DNA of 64,000 bases, taken from Escherichia phage vB_EcoM-ZQ1. Position numbers and translations under genes: made by a program. This document shows, one piece after another, positions 2,321-63,259 of the stretch. The number at the start of each line of letters is the position of its first letter. Within the stretch, counting starts at the first letter, position 1. The stretch lies in the sequence record MW650886.1; one strand, written 5' to 3'. The notes beneath the pieces are model-generated. The model ran no database searches and was not told where the DNA came from. It was given only the letters and a program-made list of their open reading frames with translations.

Positions 2321-2674
2321 TTACGACAGCTGCTTCAGTTTGTAGATCGTCTGATAGCACAGCGTCTTGATTTCATCAAGTGTGTTCTGAAGGTGGGAGT
2401 CACACTGCTTGTAGATGCCATCTACGTCTATCACCACACTGTTAATATAGGAGATAGGGTCTGGGTTGTACAATTTGATATTCTCGAATGATGGAACATA
2501 CTGGCCACCCGCACCGATGTATGCTTCGGTAAACGTGTCCAGCAAGTCCTCTAGATCCCCGTAGAACTCCCCGAGTGCCTTGTGCTTGGCATAGGACGTT
2601 GTAACGAAGTGTAAGGCATGAGAGTGGGCTATAGCAAGCAGTCCACGGTTGATGAAAATACTCGCATTGACCAT
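2321..2674 (-). CDS. hypothetical protein, possible ferritin/Dps-like helical protein
   Basis: internal ATG at 2674 with GAGGA RBS; His/Glu-rich helical pattern; TTAAATA late-like motif upstream. Confidence 0.4.
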   Translation of the reverse strand: MVNASIFINRGLLAIAHSHALHFVTTSYAKHKALGEFYGDLEDLLDTFTEAYIGAGGQYVPSFENIKLYNPDPISYINSVVIDVDGIYKQCDSHLQNTLDEIKTLCYQTIYKLKQLS

Positions 2675-2759
2675 GATGTTGTCCTCAGAAAAAGAAATCC
2701 CCCTGTATTTAAGGGGGATTGTAATCACTGCTTGACAAGAACCATCTTGATGGTTTCAC

Positions 2760-3065
2760 TTAGTCTTTGTCGGCAGACTTGCCAAAGAAGAATTCGAAAC
2801 CGTCATGGACAGCAACGACTTCCTGACCTTGGGAGATACCGTGAGTCTGGTCTGGGGTCAGCTTCACCTTGATGGTGTTGCCATCGGTTAACTCCAGGTT
2901 GTAGACATCCGCCTGATTGTCAGGAGTGATCTGGGTCACGGTAGCGCCGGAACACCACTGAGTGCCATCAGCTTGTTTGGTGATGGATACGGTCTTACCC
3001 TGGACACCAGCATGGGTCTGAGGTTTAGCGGCTTGTTCTTTAAAATATTCGATAAACGGTTTCAT
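2760..3065 (-). CDS. hypothetical late protein (101 aa)
   Basis: ORF preceded by canonical T4 late promoter TATAAATA. Confidence 0.5.
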   Translation of the reverse strand: MKPFIEYFKEQAAKPQTHAGVQGKTVSITKQADGTQWCSGATVTQITPDNQADVYNLELTDGNTIKVKLTPDQTHGISQGQEVVAVHDGFEFFFGKSADKD

Positions 3066-3121: not shown

Positions 3122-6100
3122 TCAGATCTTAATCTGCATGTTGCCACCCAGGGACTGCTCGTACTCGCTGTATGCGCCTTCCCCGTAGTCTCGTGCCCAC
3201 TGGTCAGACTGCTGGGCGCTATCCAGAGTCATCAGGTTTGGTTCAGTCGGGTTGTAACCCTTGGACTTCGCATCCCGGTACAGAGTCTGCAGGTACTGGT
3301 TGGCGCGGTCAATCTGAGCTTTGAACTCGCGATATGCCCCTTCAGTTGTGTTGCGGCGGAAGGTGATATCCCAGTCCACGTTCAGAGTCTGACCATCACG
3401 GCTTGCATAGATCTGCCAATCCAGGTCGCGGCCTTTTGGTGCGTTGTCGCGGATGGAGTCGGCGTATGCCGCAAGGTCGTCCTTCGGATTGTGCGACGTG
3501 CTTTTCAGAAGTAGTGCATGACCCATACCACCGTTTGGCTCAAGAGACCATTTTCCTGTTTCTCTTCCCAGGCGTTCTATGTTGTTGAGTTGGTTTATCG
3601 ACAATTCAGAAGAGTCAAATAATACCACATCACGTTTTTTGGGGGTTCTCACATAAGGGGTGAGATCAATGTCGATCATCCGGTTTATAAATTCTACCAC
3701 TTCAGCTTGTTTCTTTGGCAATGTGGTATTGATATCCGGCTTGTTTGCCACTTTCTCTAGGCGTTTATTTTCTGCGCTTATCATGGACAGCATAATTTGT
3801 GTAACTTTGCCGTCAGACAAGTTGTAATCATTCCAAATCACTTCACCTTTATCCGTGATGGTTATATCGTTCAAGAACACCTGGTTTGGGTTGTATGACT
3901 GACTTTTCAACTGTTGGAGGTTTCTGGAAAGATATACCATTTTTGATGAAATCTCATCAATCACACTCTGGACCATATCTTTGTTTAAAGGAAGTTCATA
4001 TGTCTTCGGATTGTTCAGGGTACGCCCTTTCTGAGAGACAATTGGGGTGAATGCAACTTTACCTTTGTCGTAGTAATAGGTCACGTTGGTTATCATAGAA
4101 GTACCGGCGTATTTTCCCGTTTCGGGGAAATTGACATCCCACCGAATGGACATGCCGTTGACAGTCTCACCAAACACCATGGCGTTGCTTGGTATCTTCA
4201 GGGTTCCAGAGTTGACCAGATCAGCGCCTTGGGCATTCAGGTCGATAGAACCATAGATAGCCCCGGTAATACGATCTTTCAACATCAGGGTCTTGTCGCC
4301 CTTCTCTGGGATGATTTCCAGCGGGTGCTTGCCACGCGGAGGTTCTTTGATGAGTTCCAGTAGAGCAGTTTTCCCTGGTTTCACACGATTCAGGACAGCG
4401 TCGGACACTGTCAGAGTCCAGTTTGCGGTTTCCACATAACCCCAGCCCCGAGAACGGCGAATGGCTTTGATAGGATATGGAGCGCTTGTTGGCACTGCGC
4501 TAATTTCCCATTTGCCAGTGTACTGGGTCTTGGCAACCTCAAAGATGGACGCAATTACTGCATTGGCGACGTCACGGGCGCTACCTTTGGCCACGTTCTC
4601 CTCTTCAGCAATTTCGCTGAAAACTGAGTATTGAACGAAACCAGCGAGGACGTTTGTGAAGTTGACAACGATAACCAACCCGCCTGCTGTCGTGTAACGA
4701 CCAGCGCCCACACGACGGATGTTTTCACCAGGAAGAATAGAAGTGTCCAACCCAACGTTGGTATCAATGATACCCAGAACACGAGCGATGAAACCACTGT
4801 CACGTAATTGATCAACACTGGTTGCACCCTCGGTCGAATCCGATGCGGATTTAGACACTTTGTTCAACTTGATAGAGACAAGGGTTTCCCCGTTGACACC
4901 GATGATATCCCATTCAGTACCCTGCTCGTTCGAGGTGCGGGCAATCTTGCGCTTTGAATTGATGGCACCTTCGTAACGCCCGTTCTTGACCACAACAGAG
5001 GCAGTAGCAGCATCAGTCGCACTTGCTGCATTTGAAAAGTCTGGGTCAGAAATACTGATGTCGACGTCACCGTTTTGAGAACGCATGCGAACACCGTTTT
5101 TGAATCGTTCAACGTTTACTTCTCGAGCACCAAGTCGTTTGGCATCAATAACAGCAGTTCCAGAACCGATAATGTTGGCTGGGTTATTTCTGTCTGAACT
5201 GTTTTGAGAACCTTTCCAAAATTTTGTAGACGCCATGGTGAAATCATTCAGGATATTGATAGGGACTTGCGGTAATTTCAACTGACGAGCAATGAAATCA
5301 GCACTTTGCCCACGCACAGGTTTCTCATTCATGTATGCGCCAACATACACGCCCGGCTCATTGTAGTGGGGAGCGATATTTGCCGTGTTCGTGCGGCCTC
5401 TCTCCTTACCAGCCCATAACAACATGGGCTGATCCCCGTTTGAAGTTAATTTCCATCCGTTGCCATTGCTGGTGTCATTGCTGGTGTCATTGCTGGTGTC
5501 AACGTCCACCACCAGAATTATCTGAGCACCTTTCTTGAAAGTGTACTGATCGTACATACCTTTCTTCTGTTTGGTCATGGACGCACCGACCAAGTCTTGG
5601 TTGGTGAAGCCGCGCTTCATATTCCAAGATACCTCAGTCCCGTCTGGATATTTGTCAAAATCATAACCATAGAATGTGGCTACTTCTTTCGAACCGCTTA
5701 TCAGACGGACGTAATTTCCACGAATCGGGTCTCGCCCGCTCTTCAACTCCAGACCAGTGTCCGAGCTGTTGTACCACTCGCGGTTGACTTCTATTTCAGA
5801 AGAACCAGCCCCAACTCCCACATCCGGAGTATTGTTCTGAACCGGAACGTCACCGACTTTGTCTGGATCATCCCAGGTGATACCCTGCATCTTCGGACCG
5901 TCGAATACCTGAGCCGGATCTTTACCCTTACGAACTAGCCACACATAACCACGGTCAGGAACAGGCGCGTAGGTCAGGTCCATGACGTTCAGTTTCTGCT
6001 TCAGGCCGGACTGGCGGATGATCTTAGGAATCAGGGTCATACCGCGATCCAGCGCTTTCTTAGAGAAGTTGACAGCAAAGCCATCGATGGTCTTACCCAG

Positions 6101-6412
6101 AGGGGTCGCCATGAATTGTTTGGTCGCTTCGATCATGGAAGCGATAACGCGCATTGGGTTCTTGAAGCGAGCGATGGCGTCAGGATAGACGGAGCCGCGC
6201 TTCTGGCCGATGAAAACCTGACGAACGCTCTTGCCCAGCCCCTGAGGAGTATAGAACTGAATGCGGTATTCCTTATCATCTTCGTCGACGAAGGTAAAGA
6301 ACACATCGCCTGCGTTCTTCTTACCCATGGTCAGCTCATACGGAGCGGAGTTGAACGCTTCGTCTAACTGATCTCTTTCCTGCATGAACTGGAGGAAACT
6401 TAGCTTTGACAT
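3122..6412 (-). CDS. large hypothetical protein (1096 aa) with internal (DTSN)x3 repeat
   Basis: long uninterrupted ORF; no polymerase or ATPase motifs seen; CTAATTA late-like motif upstream. Confidence 0.6.
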   Translation of the reverse strand: MSKLSFLQFMQERDQLDEAFNSAPYELTMGKKNAGDVFFTFVDEDDKEYRIQFYTPQGLGKSVRQVFIGQKRGSVYPDAIARFKNPMRVIASMIEATKQFMATPLGKTIDGFAVNFSKKALDRGMTLIPKIIRQSGLKQKLNVMDLTYAPVPDRGYVWLVRKGKDPAQVFDGPKMQGITWDDPDKVGDVPVQNNTPDVGVGAGSSEIEVNREWYNSSDTGLELKSGRDPIRGNYVRLISGSKEVATFYGYDFDKYPDGTEVSWNMKRGFTNQDLVGASMTKQKKGMYDQYTFKKGAQIILVVDVDTSNDTSNDTSNGNGWKLTSNGDQPMLLWAGKERGRTNTANIAPHYNEPGVYVGAYMNEKPVRGQSADFIARQLKLPQVPINILNDFTMASTKFWKGSQNSSDRNNPANIIGSGTAVIDAKRLGAREVNVERFKNGVRMRSQNGDVDISISDPDFSNAASATDAATASVVVKNGRYEGAINSKRKIARTSNEQGTEWDIIGVNGETLVSIKLNKVSKSASDSTEGATSVDQLRDSGFIARVLGIIDTNVGLDTSILPGENIRRVGAGRYTTAGGLVIVVNFTNVLAGFVQYSVFSEIAEEENVAKGSARDVANAVIASIFEVAKTQYTGKWEISAVPTSAPYPIKAIRRSRGWGYVETANWTLTVSDAVLNRVKPGKTALLELIKEPPRGKHPLEIIPEKGDKTLMLKDRITGAIYGSIDLNAQGADLVNSGTLKIPSNAMVFGETVNGMSIRWDVNFPETGKYAGTSMITNVTYYYDKGKVAFTPIVSQKGRTLNNPKTYELPLNKDMVQSVIDEISSKMVYLSRNLQQLKSQSYNPNQVFLNDITITDKGEVIWNDYNLSDGKVTQIMLSMISAENKRLEKVANKPDINTTLPKKQAEVVEFINRMIDIDLTPYVRTPKKRDVVLFDSSELSINQLNNIERLGRETGKWSLEPNGGMGHALLLKSTSHNPKDDLAAYADSIRDNAPKGRDLDWQIYASRDGQTLNVDWDITFRRNTTEGAYREFKAQIDRANQYLQTLYRDAKSKGYNPTEPNLMTLDSAQQSDQWARDYGEGAYSEYEQSLGGNMQIKI
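5463..5498 (-). repeat. in-frame 12-bp tandem repeat x3
   Basis: cattgctggtgt repeated three times, encoding DTSN-DTSN-DTSN. Confidence 0.8.
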
Positions 6413-6929: not shown

Positions 6930-7568
6930 TTACGGCGTCGGATTCACAACCGGAATGTGGGATCGAATACCTGCGATGATGTCCTTCAGCCGAGGATTCC
7001 ATCCACCCACCAAACGGGGGAGAGCGATAGCGCCAGGCTGGACCAAAATGATGTCGCTGCCTGTGATATTGTGCTGAGGGAACTGAGCAAGGTACTGCTC
7101 CATGGCGACACCCTCATCAATCAGAACAGGACCGACATCAGATGACGCGTAGGTTGCACCCAGACCGTCAACGCCCCATGCCAAGATACCCCAGTCAGGG
7201 ATGTTGGCTTCAGATGTGATGGTGAATCCAAACACGGTGTTCAGCGAAGTAAAGGAATAGACATCGTGGGTGATGTCATACACCAGATACCCCTTGGCCA
7301 GCATATCGGCAAAGATCGCGTCCGTATCGCCAACAGCCGGAGTCGGCACAGTAAACAACAGCTCGCCATCAGGAGGAGCAGGATACGTGCCGAGGGCATA
7401 GAGGCACCATGCATCAATGCACTTCTTAATGAACGCCTCTGGCGCGACATAATCAGCAAGGCGAACCGTACCTGAGTACTCTGATACGATAATGCCTTCC
7501 TTCGCACCCTGTAGAGCAATGAAGACCAAGATATGTTCATATCCGGCCTGAGATGGAGTGATGTTCAT
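6930..7568 (-). CDS. hypothetical protein (212 aa)
   Basis: ORF; internal ATG 7568 overlaps stop of upstream gene. Confidence 0.5.
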   Translation of the reverse strand: MNITPSQAGYEHILVFIALQGAKEGIIVSEYSGTVRLADYVAPEAFIKKCIDAWCLYALGTYPAPPDGELLFTVPTPAVGDTDAIFADMLAKGYLVYDITHDVYSFTSLNTVFGFTITSEANIPDWGILAWGVDGLGATYASSDVGPVLIDEGVAMEQYLAQFPQHNITGSDIILVQPGAIALPRLVGGWNPRLKDIIAGIRSHIPVVNPTP

Positions 7569-8182
7569 TATCTTGTCCTCTTCAGTTTCTCTATTGTGTG
7601 CTTGTTCATGGCGATCACCTGAGGATCTACCTCGGAGATGGTCCGGCCTTCGAAAGACACACATTTCTGAAGATATTTAGCTTTCTTCACGACGTCGGCA
7701 GCATAAGCGTTCGATGCAGGATTACGGGCGAAGCCAGCATTGTAAGAGGAGAGGGATTTGCGGATATTCTGATTGTGATAGGTCAGCCAGAACTGCATCT
7801 CATCGAGGGCGGCTTGCGCGGCATATTCTTGGTCGGTCAGCAACTTTATGGCGACATTGGCATAGCACTTGCGATTCTTACAACCTTCGCGATCACCAAC
7901 TGTCTTCACCTTGTTCTGAAAGGCTCCCATGTTGGCCGCCTTGAGACCGTATCGCATTGACACTACATCTTCACCAGCGCGGCTCTCTCGCCAAGATATG
8001 GCGGCCAGAGTGTAGCCAAGATCTTGTGTCTTGCCTACGTGATAGGCGGTTGCCATCGTATTAAGTTGTTGCTCGGAGAAATTATAAACACATTGACTTG
8101 TATTTTGGGAAGCGTGCACATTCCCGCTGGCAATGGTAAAGGTCACGGACAAGGCCATGGCCTTCAACGTTGTCATCGTCAT
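7568..8182 (-). CDS. secreted protein, possible lytic transglycosylase-like
   Basis: N-terminal signal-peptide-like segment; weak ES...GAFQ motif. Confidence 0.4.
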   Translation of the reverse strand: MTMTTLKAMALSVTFTIASGNVHASQNTSQCVYNFSEQQLNTMATAYHVGKTQDLGYTLAAISWRESRAGEDVVSMRYGLKAANMGAFQNKVKTVGDREGCKNRKCYANVAIKLLTDQEYAAQAALDEMQFWLTYHNQNIRKSLSSYNAGFARNPASNAYAADVVKKAKYLQKCVSFEGRTISEVDPQVIAMNKHTIEKLKRTR

Positions 8183-33262: not shown

Positions 33263-33309
33263 CTTTATTAAAGATAATAACCTTTATTAAAGATAATAAT
33301 CTTTATTAA
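33263..33309. repeat. three iteron-like direct repeats (CTTTATTAAAGATAATAA period 18 bp)
   Basis: two full copies plus partial third in the largest noncoding gap. Confidence 0.7.
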
Positions 33310-44014: not shown

Positions 44015-44866
44015 TTAGCCGTTGATGCCGAAGCGACGATTATAGTCGGCCAACTGACGCTTGATAGATTCTTTCAGCTCTTTGTCTGTTTCATCTTCAT
44101 CGTCATCTTCATCGCCTTCTTTCTTAGGCTTTTTGCCTTCGGCTTTAACATCTTTGTTGTCGTCATCGCCGTCTTTACCGCCGACTTTGTCCTGGAAGTC
44201 ATCGTCATCGTCATCGCCTTCTTTCTTCACGGACTTACCTTCTACCAGGTTGCGGAAGGTGTGTACGCGGGAAGCGAATTCGCTTTCGGTGGTGAACTGC
44301 ACAGCTTCCAGCAGATTGACAACCGTTGCTTTCTTGGTGTCGACCATACCTTCACAGACACGGGCGATCACAGAGTCACGCAGAGTCGCATTCGCGGCTT
44401 CTTTGATTTGACGGTTTTCGCTTTCGGCAATCGCAGCACGTCGTTCTGCTTCGGTCAGGCGGGCAGTCAGCGCAGCGATCTGGCCGTTTTCGTCGGTGGC
44501 AAAGTTGATACCAGCTTCTTTCAGAACACCAGTCAGGCCAGTCAGCAGATTTTCAGCCGCTTCACGTTTGATCTGAGCATCGATTGCAGGAGCGTTCTTG
44601 TTAGCCCACTCTTCTACAACAGCATTCAGGAAGCCATCGACTTTGGTCGCGATTTCCATCAAGTGAGACTCTTTCAGCTGAGCAATCTCAGCCTGATGAG
44701 CTTCAACCAGACGCAGGCGCTCAATGTTGGCAGCGTTTTCGGTTTCTTGAATAGCGGTCAGGCGAGCGGCTTCTACTTTAGATTCCAGCAGACCAGACAC
44801 TTTATCCAGGAAGTCGGTGCTGAGGCCGTTAACGCCCTCAAACAGTTTTTGCAATTCAGGTTTCAT
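44015..44866 (-). CDS. 22: prohead scaffold protein, gp22-like
   Basis: helical, highly acidic C-terminus; position between protease and capsid genes. Confidence 0.6.
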   Translation of the reverse strand: MKPELQKLFEGVNGLSTDFLDKVSGLLESKVEAARLTAIQETENAANIERLRLVEAHQAEIAQLKESHLMEIATKVDGFLNAVVEEWANKNAPAIDAQIKREAAENLLTGLTGVLKEAGINFATDENGQIAALTARLTEAERRAAIAESENRQIKEAANATLRDSVIARVCEGMVDTKKATVVNLLEAVQFTTESEFASRVHTFRNLVEGKSVKKEGDDDDDDFQDKVGGKDGDDDNKDVKAEGKKPKKEGDEDDDEDETDKELKESIKRQLADYNRRFGING

Positions 44867-44911: not shown

Positions 44912-45580
44912 TCAGCCCAGATGTTTCAATGCGATATCGAGGCGGCGCAGGAAGTCGTCTTCTAACTGAATATTGGTTTTCACCAATGAATCGACCACAT
45001 GCCCCTTAATGTCCTTAGGAACCCAAATTCCTGAAGATTCATCAAGCTGCCATTCCACAGATTCGCTCACAGCCTTTACATAACAAACTTGTCCAGAAGG
45101 ACGGTCGACTGCATCAACAGCAGTGAGCATAAAGCCGGGTTGAACGTCATCATAGCCGTTCACTGACTTGGTCTCACCAAGGCCACGTGTAGACACGGCC
45201 AGGTTGAAGTCTGCTTCAGCCAGAGCACGAATGATCTGACCTTTCGGTGTATTCAGGATCCGCGCTCGACCGATAGCGTTGGTGCCTTCCCAGCGCAAAG
45301 ATTCGGTTTTGAGTGCAGCGTGTTCGATATCGGGGAAAGGATAATCCGGATGCTTGAGTTCACCGATTGCACGACGATCCTGGATATACTCTTTGTCGTA
45401 TGCTTCGACAGCAGGGATACCCACCTTTTGGAGATCGTAGTTGCGACCATTACGGTTCACCTGGTTACACATCACGAATGGACCTTCGATGTACATGGCT
45501 TTGCCGCCAGTAGCCGTGGCCGCTTCACCAATCTGAAGGTCTTTCCCTATCGCAGTGATCTCACGCAACAGTTTCATCAT
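44912..45580 (-). CDS. 21: prohead protease, gp21-like
   Basis: VNRNGRNY matches T4 gp21 KNRNGRVY; size 222 aa. Confidence 0.75.
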   Translation of the reverse strand: MMKLLREITAIGKDLQIGEAATATGGKAMYIEGPFVMCNQVNRNGRNYDLQKVGIPAVEAYDKEYIQDRRAIGELKHPDYPFPDIEHAALKTESLRWEGTNAIGRARILNTPKGQIIRALAEADFNLAVSTRGLGETKSVNGYDDVQPGFMLTAVDAVDRPSGQVCYVKAVSESVEWQLDESSGIWVPKDIKGHVVDSLVKTNIQLEDDFLRRLDIALKHLG

Positions 45581-58983: not shown

Positions 58984-61900
58984 TTATGCCAGAGCAATCA
59001 AACGGAAATCTTTGAATGACGGCGGTGCTATGCGGTTGCCTCTGACCAGCAGGCGGATCTTCAGGCCAACGAAAGGATTGGTGCTCTCTACAGTCTTGTC
59101 ATACTCATATTCGAAGAATGTAGAACCGTCATTGACCAGAGGGGATGTCGGTGTCACAGTTTCCCATGCCACATTATCCATCTCCTGACCTGCGCGCAGC
59201 AGTTTAACCTGCACAGTCATTGAAGACTGAGAAGGTAGCATCGCGCCGAAGTATTGCTTCAGAGTGGTGCAAGGGTTATCGAATCCGATATCCTTGGTCA
59301 CATAGCTGAACACATCTTCAAACGGATCCACACCGTAGGTGTTGAAGATGATAGTGAAATCATCACCGTCGATCATTGGAGCCGTGTAGACATTACTCTC
59401 GTTGCGAGTCATGGTTGCACGAACCTGGAAGTCGCCCACCTGACGATAGATACCTTCCGTCGGCAGAGACACGTCCGTATCGGATTCGAACTCAACCCAA
59501 TCAGAGAATGAGTTGGAGGTCGCATCGCGATAGCGGTATTCCAGTTTCAACACAGATCCTTCTAGGGCTGAATTGGTGACGCTTGCGTAGAACATGTCTA
59601 CCAAGTAGTTGCCTAGGAAAGAAGCCGCTTCGCCACCAATCTGACCGTCGGAGTCGGCGTTGGAACTCAGAACGAATTTGAACGTCGTGAACGTCGCATC
59701 AGTCACAGTGTGTTGGGCGTTCAGCTGCTCAGGAGTGAAACCGCAACCACCCGTCAACCCAGAAAGAGTAACACTTTCACCCGCAGTCAGGCCATGCCCC
59801 GGAGCGTACACAGTAACAGTTGAAGAACCGTTGACACATTTCACGGTGTTCAGACCCAGAGGGCGGATCTTCGGACCGACTTTAGCATCGAAGGTCACGA
59901 TGTTTGAACCAGCGGAGAAGTTACAGCGATATACACGGAACTTCATATCGGCAGTCTGGTTTGGAGTCCAGGTCGTACCATTTGAAGATGTGAAGAACAC
60001 GCCAGTGTACGGCTGTTTGGCAATGAACTCGTTGGTCAGCAAGTTCTTCTTACCCATCTCTGCGATGTATGCGTTGTAGTCCTGAGTGTTGGCCAAGAGA
60101 ACAATCGCGAACTCAGTCTGCGCCTGCAGATACACAGGATAATCAAACTTGAACATCGTTGGCACAGAAGAGTCTGTGGAGGTGGAAACTTCTGATGGAT
60201 TCAGAGTCTTACGAGTGACGACAGTCGTCGCTGGCAGACCATTGCTCATCTCACGGATTTCCAGAGTGATCGGGATATCACGGGACTTGGTGGAGAAGAA
60301 GACTTCAATCCCTTCGATGTATTCGCCGCCGATATTGGTGGCAACCATGAAGGACTGGGCGATAGGATCTTTCCACTTCGCGACTTCAACCGTCTCTGTT
60401 TTGTTTTCCGTAGACTTGGTCGCAGTGTATCCCAGGACGCGGGTGTTGACATAAGTCTTCTGGATGCCCTGTTTCTTTCCGAAGGACTTATGAACAGCCT
60501 CGGCATTGGTCAGGGTATCATCAGCAGACTTACTGTCCACAGGACTGTCAGTCAGACGGAAGACGTTGTCACCCGTGTTAAACTTGATAGTCTCGTTCTG
60601 AGGAACCGCAAACACACCTTTGATGTTACCGTTGGCATCAGTGTTCAACGCACCACCCAGTACACCACCGTTTGGGGTACAGTACGCGCTCACATCACGC
60701 CCAGAGAAGAACGGATACACACGAGTGAACGGACGCAGCCCTGTGGCTTCGAAGTTGATGTTCGTTTTGCGCATGTATGGGATAACCTGCGTTTCAACGA
60801 TCTGCTCGCCAGTCAGGGTAGTGGTCGTCTTGTCGGTGTACGTGTACGTGGTGACGTCACGGGTAGACACAGTCGTGCGGTAGCGATAGCCCCACCATAC
60901 ACCACCTGCACCATGCGGTTCCCACACACGCTCAGACACGGACACAGTACGCCATGTGCCATACACAGAACCTTCTTTGATCGCACCACGGGTGTTGATC
61001 GTTTCGTTGATCACCCGTGGAGTAACATAGTAGTTCTCAAACCAGTAATCAGTAGTTGGGTTCAGCTTCAAGAAACCTTCCCAGTTGAACACCGCATACG
61101 GGTTCACGTTGATGGTCGTGGTTGCATAGTCCTGGCGGACAGAGATCTCACGGGTGTAGTTGCATACAACCATGCCATCCTGAACGTTGTTCCAACCGAC
61201 TGGCGTCAGGTCAATCGCGTTCTGCTGAACAAACGGGCGTAGGCGACCATTGTCGGTGTCGATTGAACCCACCCAGTCTGCAGACAAATCGTCGATCAGA
61301 CGGAAGTCTTTGAACGGGTCTGCTGCGATACCGTTCTTGAAGCGCGGGTTGCCAGTAATTGGATCGAACACCTGTTGTGACATCGCCGAGGATTCCAGCT
61401 GAGACAGTGAGGTGTAATATTCGACATTCGAGATACGGGTCTCCAGTTTACCGATATCACGCATCGTGTAGCGGCGGTTGTCGATAGTACGAATCTGGAT
61501 GTCGTCAATGTTGGCCGTGTATGGTGGGATCATCAATTCATACAGACGCATACCGTTGTCTGGGATCGCAGGGGAAGCCAGGTTGTTGGAACTCACACCA
61601 CGAGCAACGTTGAACACACCGTTGTCTGCCAGATACACAGCATCAATACGAGGCAGATAGTACTCTGCATCTAGGATGATCGCGGTGTTCGGGCGAACCA
61701 TGTCCGTGTCAGACGCTCCGCTGGTGATCTTGGGACGGAAGTCCAGACTGTCGGCCAACCCATACACAGTACCAGAACTGGATGAAACATAGTTCGGGAT
61801 GTCTGGGTAGTTGATGGACGAATAGGAGTCCGCTGTAAAGAAATCACCAGAGCTGTGAGCGAAATACTGATACACCACCGTGAACGTCCCTGAAATGGCT

Positions 61901-63259
61901 CCTGTGGACGATATGAGGTTAGAAAGGTAGTATGCAGCATCACGCTGACCGCCGTCCAGAGTGAAGTTAGAGGTGACGTCAGCGCCATTTGCGTTCTTCA
62001 CGCTGATCAGCTTGTAACCATCATGGTTCCCAAGTTGTGCGCTGGCCGCCGCAGTAAACGTCACAGTCTCGGTGGCTTCGGTAACAGTCTTGGTCTTGAT
62101 CGTCGCTGTGGTGCGGACCATCAATGCCAACAGGTTGATAGACTGGTTGGCGTACCCCGCGCCCAGGGAAATCTGCAGTGCTGAACCAACCGGAGTACCA
62201 GCCAGGGACAGTCCCGAAGAGATATCAAACTGAGCTGCAGTGCCATCTGCCTTCGCTGCGGAGTACAGTGAAAACTCAGGGCTGAAGCTGTAACCCAGAG
62301 GAGCGGAGATTGAGCCTGCACCAGCGGCGTTCAACGTGATCTTGTTTGACCGCAGGACGGTGTAGTTGATGTCGATGGTGCCTGTAGGTGCTAGGGTCTT
62401 CACACCAAATACAGGCAGAGGGAAGATCAGGTCAATTGCTGAACTCTGGCTGAACTGATTGGACTCCAGTTCGCAGGAGAACATCGTTGTACCGCTTTCT
62501 TCATAAGCGACTTTGGTCACCGTACCCATGTCCCCAGTCACAACCAGGTCGCGCATATACAGACGGAATTCAGTACCGGAGCGCTCTGCCGAAATCAGCA
62601 GGGCGGTGGCCTGCACATCGCTGGATGCGTTCAGGAACTTGTAGCGGATTGTGCGGGAGACAACCGGAACCCCTTTGGAGTTCTTGGACACCAGATAGTT
62701 GCCAGTCGAAACAGCCACAGGGTTGTTGTTCAGGATATCAGTGTCACGGGCTTTGTCAATTATGACCAGCTCTTCGCCGAGGTTTTCGATACGACGACCA
62801 CGAACGTAGGATATCCCTGGCTTCATAACCGCCACGAATTTGCTTTCATCACCACCTTCAGCCGGAGTGTAAACGCCGCCGTTGTTGTTCTGTTTCAGAT
62901 GTTCGCGCAGGTCGATCTGGTGAGTAGAGACGTTGTAGATGTTCACGCAGGTCGATCTGGTGAGTAGAGACGTTGTAATCCCCGTTGGTCTCATAAGTGC
63001 GCTGCGCCATACTGTCTTCGAGGATGTTGTAGGTGGACTGGGTCACCATGGACTGAATGCGACCGTCTTTCACCTTCGCCAGTTCAACGAAGTCGGCCAC
63101 TTCTTCATCATAACCGTAGCGAGACAACACGAGGTCGACGCGCAGGCGATGCGCACCAGGGGCTTTAGAGTTCGGAGTACCCTGAGCATTGGAGAACAGA
63201 CTTTCATCTTCTGCTTCGGTTCGTCGGAGTTGTAGGTCCTTGTATGGCGCCTGCTTCAT
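58984..63259 (-). pseudogene. large virion structural gene (tail fibre/baseplate-like, ~1411 aa if intact) split by a frameshifting 40-bp tandem duplication
   Basis: ORFs 62858..63259 and 58984..62994 overlap in different frames; both encode YNVSTHQIDLREHL across the duplicated 40-mer. Confidence 0.6.
62898..62977 (-). repeat. 40-bp tandem duplication, 1 mismatch
   Basis: gatgttcgcgcaggtcgatctggtgagtagagacgttgta followed by the same with g to a at position 8. Confidence 0.85.

Follow-up and report, generated by a model that had tools for sequence, protein, structure and literature searches.

An in-frame (DTSN)3 repeat at a cassette junction of a mosaic, probably head-packaged protein of Escherichia phage vB_EcoM-ZQ1

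Introduction

What does a perfect triple repeat do within a 1096-residue phage protein? The repeat considered here, (DTSN)3, is encoded in a 64,000-nucleotide stretch of Escherichia phage vB_EcoM-ZQ1 (sequence record MW650886.1), which is referred to in its entirety as the window. The gene that contains it occupies positions 3122..6412 on the minus strand and belongs to phrog_3867, a family annotated as being of unknown function. A preliminary description of this DNA, made from the sequence alone, interpreted the tract as a slippage-prone, hypervariable loop in a protein of possible virion function. The comparisons and structure predictions described below place the repeat at the end of an exchangeable module (cassette A), in a polar segment that separates it from the next (cassette B), within a protein of architecture N-A-B-C-D-E-F-G. 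Taken alone, the repeat is an ordinary in-frame linker minisatellite. In its wider context it is probably a slippage-prone linker in a multi-cassette virion protein that would be carried inside the head and delivered to the infected cell by injection.

The repeat and its variation among relatives

At 5464..5501, Tandem Repeats Finder detects 3.2 copies of a unit of period 12 (CATTGCTGGTGT on the plus strand), with a score of 76 and 100% matches. On the coding (minus) strand, three copies of GAC ACC AGC AAT at 5465..5500 encode residues D305–N316 (DTSNDTSNDTSN), which are followed by GNG and then by Trp320, all in frame within the 1096-residue open reading frame. The residues Gly317, Asn318 and Gly319 (5456..5464, minus strand) make up the remainder of the A–B linker and constitute a degenerate fourth unit. 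The repeat that had been described is thus real and in frame, but the coordinates given for it, 5463–5498, are one base low, the perfect copies in the same register being 5464..5499. An antisense open reading frame on the plus strand (5335..5538), in which the repeat reads as (HCWC)n, was rejected as spurious, since the gene on the opposite strand has hundreds of homologues.

The tract is the only perfect repeat with at least three copies and a period of at least 7 in the 64 kb window. No such repeat arose in 50 shuffles of the window, and the analytic expectation is 2.4 × 10−10 for period 12 and 2.6 × 10−4 when summed over periods 7–30. An identical three-unit allele is present in E. coli phage YX22 and in the IMG/VR contig L018.

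Copy number among related isolates, the check that the preliminary description had proposed, is indeed variable: with the same codons, one unit is found in CECAV050, PhiSH19 and phage 38, two in Klebsiella phage K5lambda5 and three in the window and YX22. The linker of FKP10 consists of two units plus DTSD, those of cp18 and LHE287 consist of three degenerate units and that of K751 contains two 15 bp units (GAC ACC AGC AGC AAT, encoding DTSSN). Altogether, 16 linker versions occur among 22 database proteins that carry cassette A, and the A–B junction, with nine linker alleles of six different lengths among 21 proteins, is the most length-variable junction of the family. Cassette A protein that is 99–100% identical to that of the window stands beside at least five different linker lengths, the linkers in this position including DTSNDTSNDNG, DTSNDTSNGNG, DTSNDTSSNDTSNDNG and DTSNDTSSNDTSSNDNG. 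Over approximately 480 bp (residues 170–329) the DNA of K5lambda5 shares about 99% identity with that of the window, and the single 12 bp indel in this region lies inside the repeat, with one of its ends falling in 5456..5464. Two alleles are also found within the 'WKLAKA' lineage, in which the database protein P0053 has two units and the IMG/VR contig L018 has (DTSN)3-DNG. An exact-pattern scan for further alleles returned two loci in IMG/VR and none in the JGI metagenome contigs.

The reading frame is kept in all alleles, the unit being 12 bp or, in relatives, also 15 or 3 bp. The variation is therefore length drift, and phase variation (on/off switching by frame or by promoter spacing) is ruled out. 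The whole-unit differences among relatives and the clean 12 bp indel relative to K5lambda5 between nearly identical flanks agree with the slippage-type length change that was originally suggested. The accompanying claim that the length changes in steps of four residues is too narrow, given the 15 bp DTSSN units and the point-degenerate units DTGN and DTSD.

Domain architecture and cassette exchange

Matches to the gene, always in broken pieces, come from about 180 phage records of the Ackermannviridae. The closest record is that of YX22 (98.7%); next come Agtrevirus-like phages of E. coli, Salmonella and Shigella together with Klebsiella phages of the genus Taipeivirus. The orthologues include CBA120 orf111, LIMEstone1 ORF082 plus ORF081 and Sajous1 gp214. 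Alignment of eleven orthologues shows a constant N-terminal region (approximately residues 1–195), a largely constant C-terminal region and middle blocks that are present, absent or reordered. When about 146 proteins of the family were broken down iteratively into blocks with BLAST, 58 architectures emerged, among which the N-A-B-C-D-E-F-G arrangement of the window is unique.

In this arrangement (all coordinates on the minus strand), the N-terminal leader, residues 1–18 (MSKLSFLQFMQERDQLDE; 6359..6412), resembles T4 capsid-targeting sequences and is a predicted prohead-protease propeptide. It precedes the constant N domain (residues 19 to approximately 190; 5843..6358), with the predicted fold of the N-terminal domain of T4-type Alt, and a low-complexity, predicted disordered N–A linker, VQNNTPDVGVGAGSS (5801..5842). 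Cassette A (residues 205–304; 5501..5800) is β-rich and carries the DTSN repeat as its C-terminal tail. Cassette B (residues 320–406, WKLTSNGDQ...FWKGSQ; 5195..5455) is modelled with a pLDDT of 70–84, cassette C (residues 409–523; 4844..5188) is an optional β-rich module and cassette D (residues 524–737; 4202..4843) is an α/β module found in most relatives. Cassette E (residues 738–889; 3746..4201) is nearly universal in the family. The optional cassette F (residues 890–965; 3518..3745) matches phrog_7673, 'internal head protein', over residues 900–954 and also exists as free phage proteins of 70–140 residues. The C-terminal domain G (residues 975–1096; 3125..3490) likewise occurs elsewhere as free small phage proteins with capsid-targeting-like leaders, many of which begin with leaders of the kind MKTFKEFVKE or MKLTQITEMAAK.

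Domain G is present in 81% of relatives and is joined to F in the window via LLKSTSHNPKD. In YX22 and allotria the protein stops just past cassette F (...GHALFLNVW*) and lacks G, which is therefore dispensable or is provided elsewhere. In some older genomes the orthologue is annotated as two or three distinct open reading frames (Ag3 orf00110/110.1/109, LIMEstone1 ORF082/081 and phage 38 SP38_160/161); these splits may be sequencing-error frameshifts or may be real.

A 401 bp query centred on the repeat gave blastn alignments covering either positions 1–163 or positions 165, 168, 180 or 190 to 401 of the query, and in some records both halves are matched but stand apart, separated by about 264 additional bases. 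With alignments ending at query positions 163 and 165, nucleotide similarity breaks at the repeat. At the protein level, cassette A is found in the contexts N-A-B, N-B-A, N-H-A-B, N-H-B-A, N-A-H, N-A-K, N-A-D and N-A-I. The junctions are short stretches rich in Ser, Asn, Asp, Thr, Gly, Pro and Ala, and cassettes tend to carry their own leader linker (GxGAGSS before A, SSSVDxSNG before B and xDSNTT before D). In an exhaustive HMMER search, proteins of 300–1439 residues with unrelated downstream parts proved to have only the N domain in common.

The modules also differ in their relationships. The DNA of cassette A in the window is 98.7–99.3% identical to that of the Klebsiella (Taipeivirus) phages cp18, K5lambda5, K751 and FKP10, whereas the N domain of the same phages is approximately 86% identical and the E and G domains are 67–75% identical to those of the window. 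In Salmonella phage CECAV050 the relationship is reversed, with 97% identity in N and 78% in A. Judged from these per-module identities, cassettes are exchanged between genera. Relative to K751 the identity drops right at the repeat.

Predicted structure of the linker

A full-length AlphaFold model (76-sequence alignment) has a mean pLDDT of 69.9. Segments with a pLDDT below 50 include residues 173–250, 294–317, 403–414, 519–524, 890–929 and 970–975 and take in the junctions found by protein comparison; the first of these also spans the first half of cassette A, and a large portion of cassette F lies within the stretch 890–929. Confident models (pLDDT 70–93) were obtained for cassettes B, C, D, E and G. 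The repeat residues 305–316 fall inside the low-confidence stretch 294–317, between A and B, and (DTSN)3 is accordingly modelled as a flexible, polar, unstructured inter-domain spacer. The tract is thus not the hypervariable loop proposed in the preliminary description; it links two domains and terminates a mobile cassette.

Presence in virions and relationship to Alt

Orthologues of the protein have been detected by mass spectrometry in two phages, which bears out the suggestion that it is a virion protein. In LIMEstone1, ORF081 and ORF082 were listed as 'confirmed structural proteins' by ESI-MS/MS, ORF081 with 55% coverage and 23 unique peptides (PMC3296691). ORF082 corresponds to the N-terminal 104 residues of the window protein (92% identical) and ORF081 to the remainder, with a C-terminal domain that is 82% identical. 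Sajous1 gp214, a protein of 795 residues with the architecture N-B-D-E-G (86% identical to the window protein in the N domain and 75% in the G domain), accounted for 196 spectra and ranked among the top five proteins of CsCl-purified virions (PMC10892097).

The N domain was modelled separately (residues 1–196, 42 diverse sequences) with a pLDDT of 87.9 and a pTM of 0.83. A Foldseek search with this model matched the Alt ADP-ribosylases of T4-like phages with a probability of 1.00, TM scores of 0.54–0.60 and listed E-values of 3 × 10−6 to 5 × 10−5. The matches include phiAS5 (E = 3 × 10−6, TM 0.58), SP18 (TM 0.60), HY03, CF1, 50AhydR13PP and the 'split Alt' of Henu6. Phage proteins with deaminase or ParB domains are matched by this model as well; a match to a Zeta-toxin-domain protein was obtained only in an earlier Foldseek search with the full-length model. 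Two distant metagenomic proteins of 1251 and 1439 residues (P0184 and P0248) combine the same N domain with a C-terminal ADP-ribosyltransferase domain (PF03496, E = 1 × 10−9 to 2 × 10−11). The window protein gave no Pfam match to an ADP-ribosyltransferase catalytic domain of the R-S-E type and is therefore not classed as an Alt. The N domain has the appearance of an all-purpose carrier of effectors that are injected.

The leader of the protein (MSKLSFLQFMQERDQLDE/AFNS) resembles those given in the T4 record for IPII and IPIII (MKTYQEFIAE) and for Alt (MELITELFDE). Leaders within the family include FLQFMQE and FIAE, and one distant member begins with MKSTFSGFIAE. The motif L16-x-E18 is conserved in at least 90% of the sequences in both alignments. 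By sequence resemblance, the leader is predicted to be a capsid-targeting sequence with a prohead-protease site. A gene for a gp21-type prohead protease is present at 44915..45580 (minus strand), identified by a tblastn search of the window in which it is 94% identical to LIMEstone1 ORF140, and it adjoins genes for a gp22 scaffold protein, a prohead core protein and a portal protein. This protease is predicted to remove the leader of the 1096-residue protein.

Comparison with known systems

In-frame coding minisatellites in Ser/Thr/Asn/Asp/Gly-rich linkers of phage fibres and of cell-surface and cellulosomal proteins vary in length by slipped-strand mispairing. The DTSN tract resembles these in its perfect head-to-tail unit with a length that is a multiple of three, in its polar, disorder-prone residues, in its position between folded modules and in its whole-unit length polymorphism between near-identical relatives. 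It differs in being very short, with a maximum of three units in any relative, and in the absence of frameshift-type phase variation.

Among characterized proteins, the 1096-residue protein may be likened most closely to T4 Alt and to the internal proteins of T-even phages and, in its architectural logic, to polyvalent proteins. T4 Alt is described, in the T4 record annotation and in a survey of polyvalent proteins of phages and conjugative elements (PMC5512222), as a head-packaged ADP-ribosyltransferase that enters the cell along with the DNA by injection. Common to Alt and the window protein are the predicted fold of the N-terminal domain of about 190 residues, a leader ending in hydrophobic-x-E, occurrence in virions (in the case of the window protein, that of its orthologues) and a gp21-type protease in the phage; in addition, an ADP-ribosyltransferase domain occurs in distant relatives of the window protein that have this N domain. 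Unlike Alt, the window protein has no recognizable catalytic domain and has shuffled cassettes in place of a single enzyme, and the sequence similarity between the two is marginal.

The T4 internal proteins IPI, IPII and IPIII and their hypervariable relatives form a diverse injected anti-restriction arsenal whose members share only the capsid-targeting sequence (PMC3012670). The leader of the window protein (MSKLSFLQFMQE...LDE) may be compared with MKTYQEFIAE, and in both cases the content is highly diverse between related phages. The PHROG match of cassette F to 'internal head protein' and the capsid-targeting-like leaders of the free G-domain proteins are further points of likeness. The gene is situated in the neighbourhood that extends from regB/vs.1 to MobD.6, a few kb away from where ipII/ipIII stand in T4; exact synteny with ipII/ipIII was not found, the neighbourhood being shared and the slot being different. 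The T-even internal proteins are small, single-domain products of separate genes, in contrast to the up to eight modules in a 1096-residue chain behind an Alt-type domain.

Polyvalent proteins combine two to fifteen disparate, mostly enzymatic domains per polypeptide, as defined in the part of Iyer et al. 2017 (PMC5512222) on which this comparison draws. The window protein is similarly a large phage-encoded protein, of eight modules, that is probably delivered with the DNA and has an architecture that is highly variable between relatives, suggesting an arms race. It differs in having no recognizable enzymatic domain among its eight modules and thus appears to fall outside that definition; the family is not mentioned in the same part of that paper. 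In the Ackermannviridae literature searched, the protein is not described, and a review and a 14-genome Agtrevirus comparison give only unnamed variable 'hypothetical proteins'. The cassette protein around the repeat therefore appears to be undescribed.

Interpretation of the repeat

In the mechanism that we consider probable, (DTSN)3 would be the C-terminal tail of cassette A that tethers A to B in a beads-on-a-string virion protein. Its three identical 12 bp units would provide for replication slippage or unequal recombination, and gains and losses of whole units would be tolerated owing to a unit length divisible by three and to the lack of structure in this segment, so that the length of the linker drifts between close relatives. 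The repeat most likely has no role beyond spacing, its identical units making the A–B linker less length-stable than the others, and the linker-coding DNA may also favour cassette exchange. Cassettes of about 80–210 residues come and go, change their order and pass from one phage genus to another, through recombination that would take place in or close to the linkers. The leader and the Alt-like domain would carry the protein into the prohead core, where the gp21-type protease would trim the leader, and the protein would leave the head with the DNA and enter the cell in the manner of T4 Alt and the internal proteins. Flexible linkers could let the 1096-residue chain behave as a string of small beads, and the cassettes may be effector or binding payload modules under diversifying pressure.

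That the tract is a sequencing or assembly artefact, or a meaningless chance run of low complexity, is most improbable. Nothing specific speaks for an artefact. Repeats are a general source of assembly errors, and the window does contain another tandem duplication that is unique to it and breaks a gene (described below). A length of 36 bp is far below any read length, however; the chance expectation is about 10−10, and the frame is kept across all alleles. The occurrence of three units in YX22 and in an independent IMG/VR contig shows that the allele is not an assembly artefact peculiar to MW650886.1. A more substantial alternative is that the repeat is mainly a substrate or scar of recombination, in which the linker DNA serves as microhomology and the triplication is a by-product or a hotspot of cassette shuffling and does not arise from polymerase slippage. 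Many blastn alignments stop exactly at the repeat, identity falls there in the comparison with K751, cassette A has clearly been exchanged between genera and each cassette brings its own leader linker. The first DTSN unit follows A before four different partners (B, I, K and E), or six if the degenerate DTDN and DADN before H and D are counted. However, the DTSN tract accompanies only cassette A and hence offers no homology with an incoming partner, and repeat-free junctions are breakpoints as well. The K5lambda5 difference is moreover a pure one-unit indel between identical flanks, which slippage predicts and for which no cassette exchange is needed. Recombination as the main origin of the repeat is thus unlikely, the two processes not being mutually exclusive.

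A hypervariable, surface-exposed loop of a decoration-like or fibre-like protein on the virion surface, the length of which would tune contact with the host or the environment, is judged decidedly unlikely. The protein is abundant in purified virions, its architecture is bead-like and β-rich and its linker length is polymorphic, all of which would suit such a protein, and residues 244–338 weakly match an Ig-group-2/dockerin construct (5k39_B, E = 0.022). This match and a Pfam lectin match (E = 0.19) are, however, insignificant and probably driven by the low-complexity linkers. Pfam gave no Ig-like, fibre or receptor-binding (Hoc-like) domain apart from the sub-threshold lectin match, and Foldseek against the PDB gave nothing below E = 1 × 10−3. 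The repeat lies between two independently mobile cassettes and not within a fold, the constant N domain combines an Alt N-terminal fold with a capsid-targeting-like leader and its LxE motif, cassettes F and G belong to families of the internal-head-protein type and the gene is located outside the structural block, among genes for small virion proteins beside regB/vs.1. These features favour packing inside the head, and the surface exposure to host or antibody contact envisaged in the preliminary description is doubtful.

Several observations weigh against a slippage-prone linker in a head-packaged, injected protein. Mass spectrometry shows that the orthologues are present in particles and not where they are positioned within them, and no convincing late promoter of the T4 type (TATAAATA) precedes the gene immediately upstream, where the only similar string coincides in part with the ribosome-binding site and the start codon. 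Public records name the protein 'tail completion protein' (UPM 2146, D5lw and the Sajous1 paper) or 'endolysin' (FKP10, locus L007, 2008..4449), and the 0507-KN2-1 record names the family 'phage associated protein'. Sequence and structure comparison gave no support for the first of these names, and none was found for the other two. The N domain is only marginally similar to T4 Alt in sequence (hhalign P = 0.006, probability 6%; hmmsearch 2.3 bits), the hhalign alignment being collinear (query residues 14–193 with Alt residues 2–195), so that the link with Alt rests on predicted structures. Searches against Pfam, the PDB by sequence (single sequence and profile), PADLOC and, with the whole protein, the PDB by Foldseek returned no usable match, and none of the cassettes shows an enzymatic or binding domain that could be recognized. 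Cassette A is poorly modelled (pLDDT 33–52), probably owing to the few sequences that cover it, so that the case for its being a domain depends chiefly on its unit-like behaviour in the comparisons. As regards slippage, no relative was found to have an allele with four or more units, and as regards exchange at the linkers, identity to K5lambda5 decays inside cassette B, so that recombination breakpoints are not always at a linker.

A broader proposal is put forward tentatively, as one that could well prove wrong: that Ackermannviridae and related Vibrio and Aeromonas phages carry a 'poly-internal-protein' in which an Alt-type packaging domain tows shuffled cassettes, the (DTSN)n linker having been caught in the course of expansion. 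Some of the cassettes would then exist elsewhere as free internal head proteins, and the low-complexity linkers would be the sites at which cassettes are swapped between genera.

For practical purposes the repeat is at most a length marker for typing close Ackermannviridae phages and a caution for assemblies. Its greater interest lies in where it points, to a junction in a protein that is among the most abundant in the virions of phages used in therapy and biocontrol (the CBA120, ViI and LIMEstone group), a protein annotated as 'hypothetical' or misannotated as 'tail completion' or 'endolysin' that is a cassette mosaic on an apparently Alt-type N-terminal domain. If the protein is injected, the cassettes become candidate modules with new roles in anti-defence or host takeover, and the gene would encode a modular, rapidly re-assortable payload delivered with the DNA. 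The Alt-type domain and leader would in that case lend themselves naturally to the packaging of foreign proteins into such phages; the T4 capsid-targeting sequence has already been used to package foreign proteins in T4 (PMC3012670).

Genomic neighbourhood and other features of the window

The large gene is flanked by genes at 2760..3065, 2321..2728, 6930..7568 and 7568..8182 (all on the minus strand), and the orthologues of this cluster have all been detected in virions: LIMEstone1 ORF078, ORF080 and ORF085 and Sajous1 gp211 (RegB-like), gp215, gp216 and gp217 (ferritin/Dps-like). The four Sajous1 proteins were detected in particles in the same study as gp214 (PMC10892097), and the LIMEstone1 cluster of virion proteins (ORF78–85) was left unexplained by its authors (PMC3296691). 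The cluster sits among early and middle genes.

Immediately downstream of the large gene, the 101-residue gene at 2760..3065 (minus strand) is the orthologue of LIMEstone1 ORF080 and Sajous1 gp215, both of which were found in virions. It corresponds to the N-terminal half of phrog_4048, spanning only the first half of this 189-residue family. Its product starts with MKPFIEYFKE, which is very like the T4 IPII/IPIII leader MKTYQEFIAE.

Short hexamer and 12-mer repeats of TTCATC and GTCATC (reverse complements GATGAA and GATGAC, encoding Asp-Glu and Asp-Asp) are found at 44090..44216, immediately downstream of the match to the gp22 scaffold protein (44231..44866, minus strand), whose acidic C-terminal portion they probably encode.

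The second tandem duplication of the window, at 62897..62977, consists of two copies of a 40 bp unit (97% match) in the 137 bp overlap of the open reading frames 62858..63259 (133 residues) and 58984..62994 (1336 residues), both on the minus strand. In all 12 relatives among the matches listed, 468–471 query bases map to 428–431 bases, corresponding to a single copy of the unit, and the region lies inside a single gene annotated as VriC, virulence-associated or tail fiber protein. The duplication, the length of which is not a multiple of three, apparently frameshifts and splits a large virion gene, and could be either a real mutation or an assembly error.

A 19 bp AT-rich direct repeat (CTTTATTAAAGATAATAAC, 2.5 copies, 96% match) is present in non-coding DNA at 33263..33309, just after a terminator-like hairpin (aaatgccttcggcattt), and may be a regulatory or protein-binding array.

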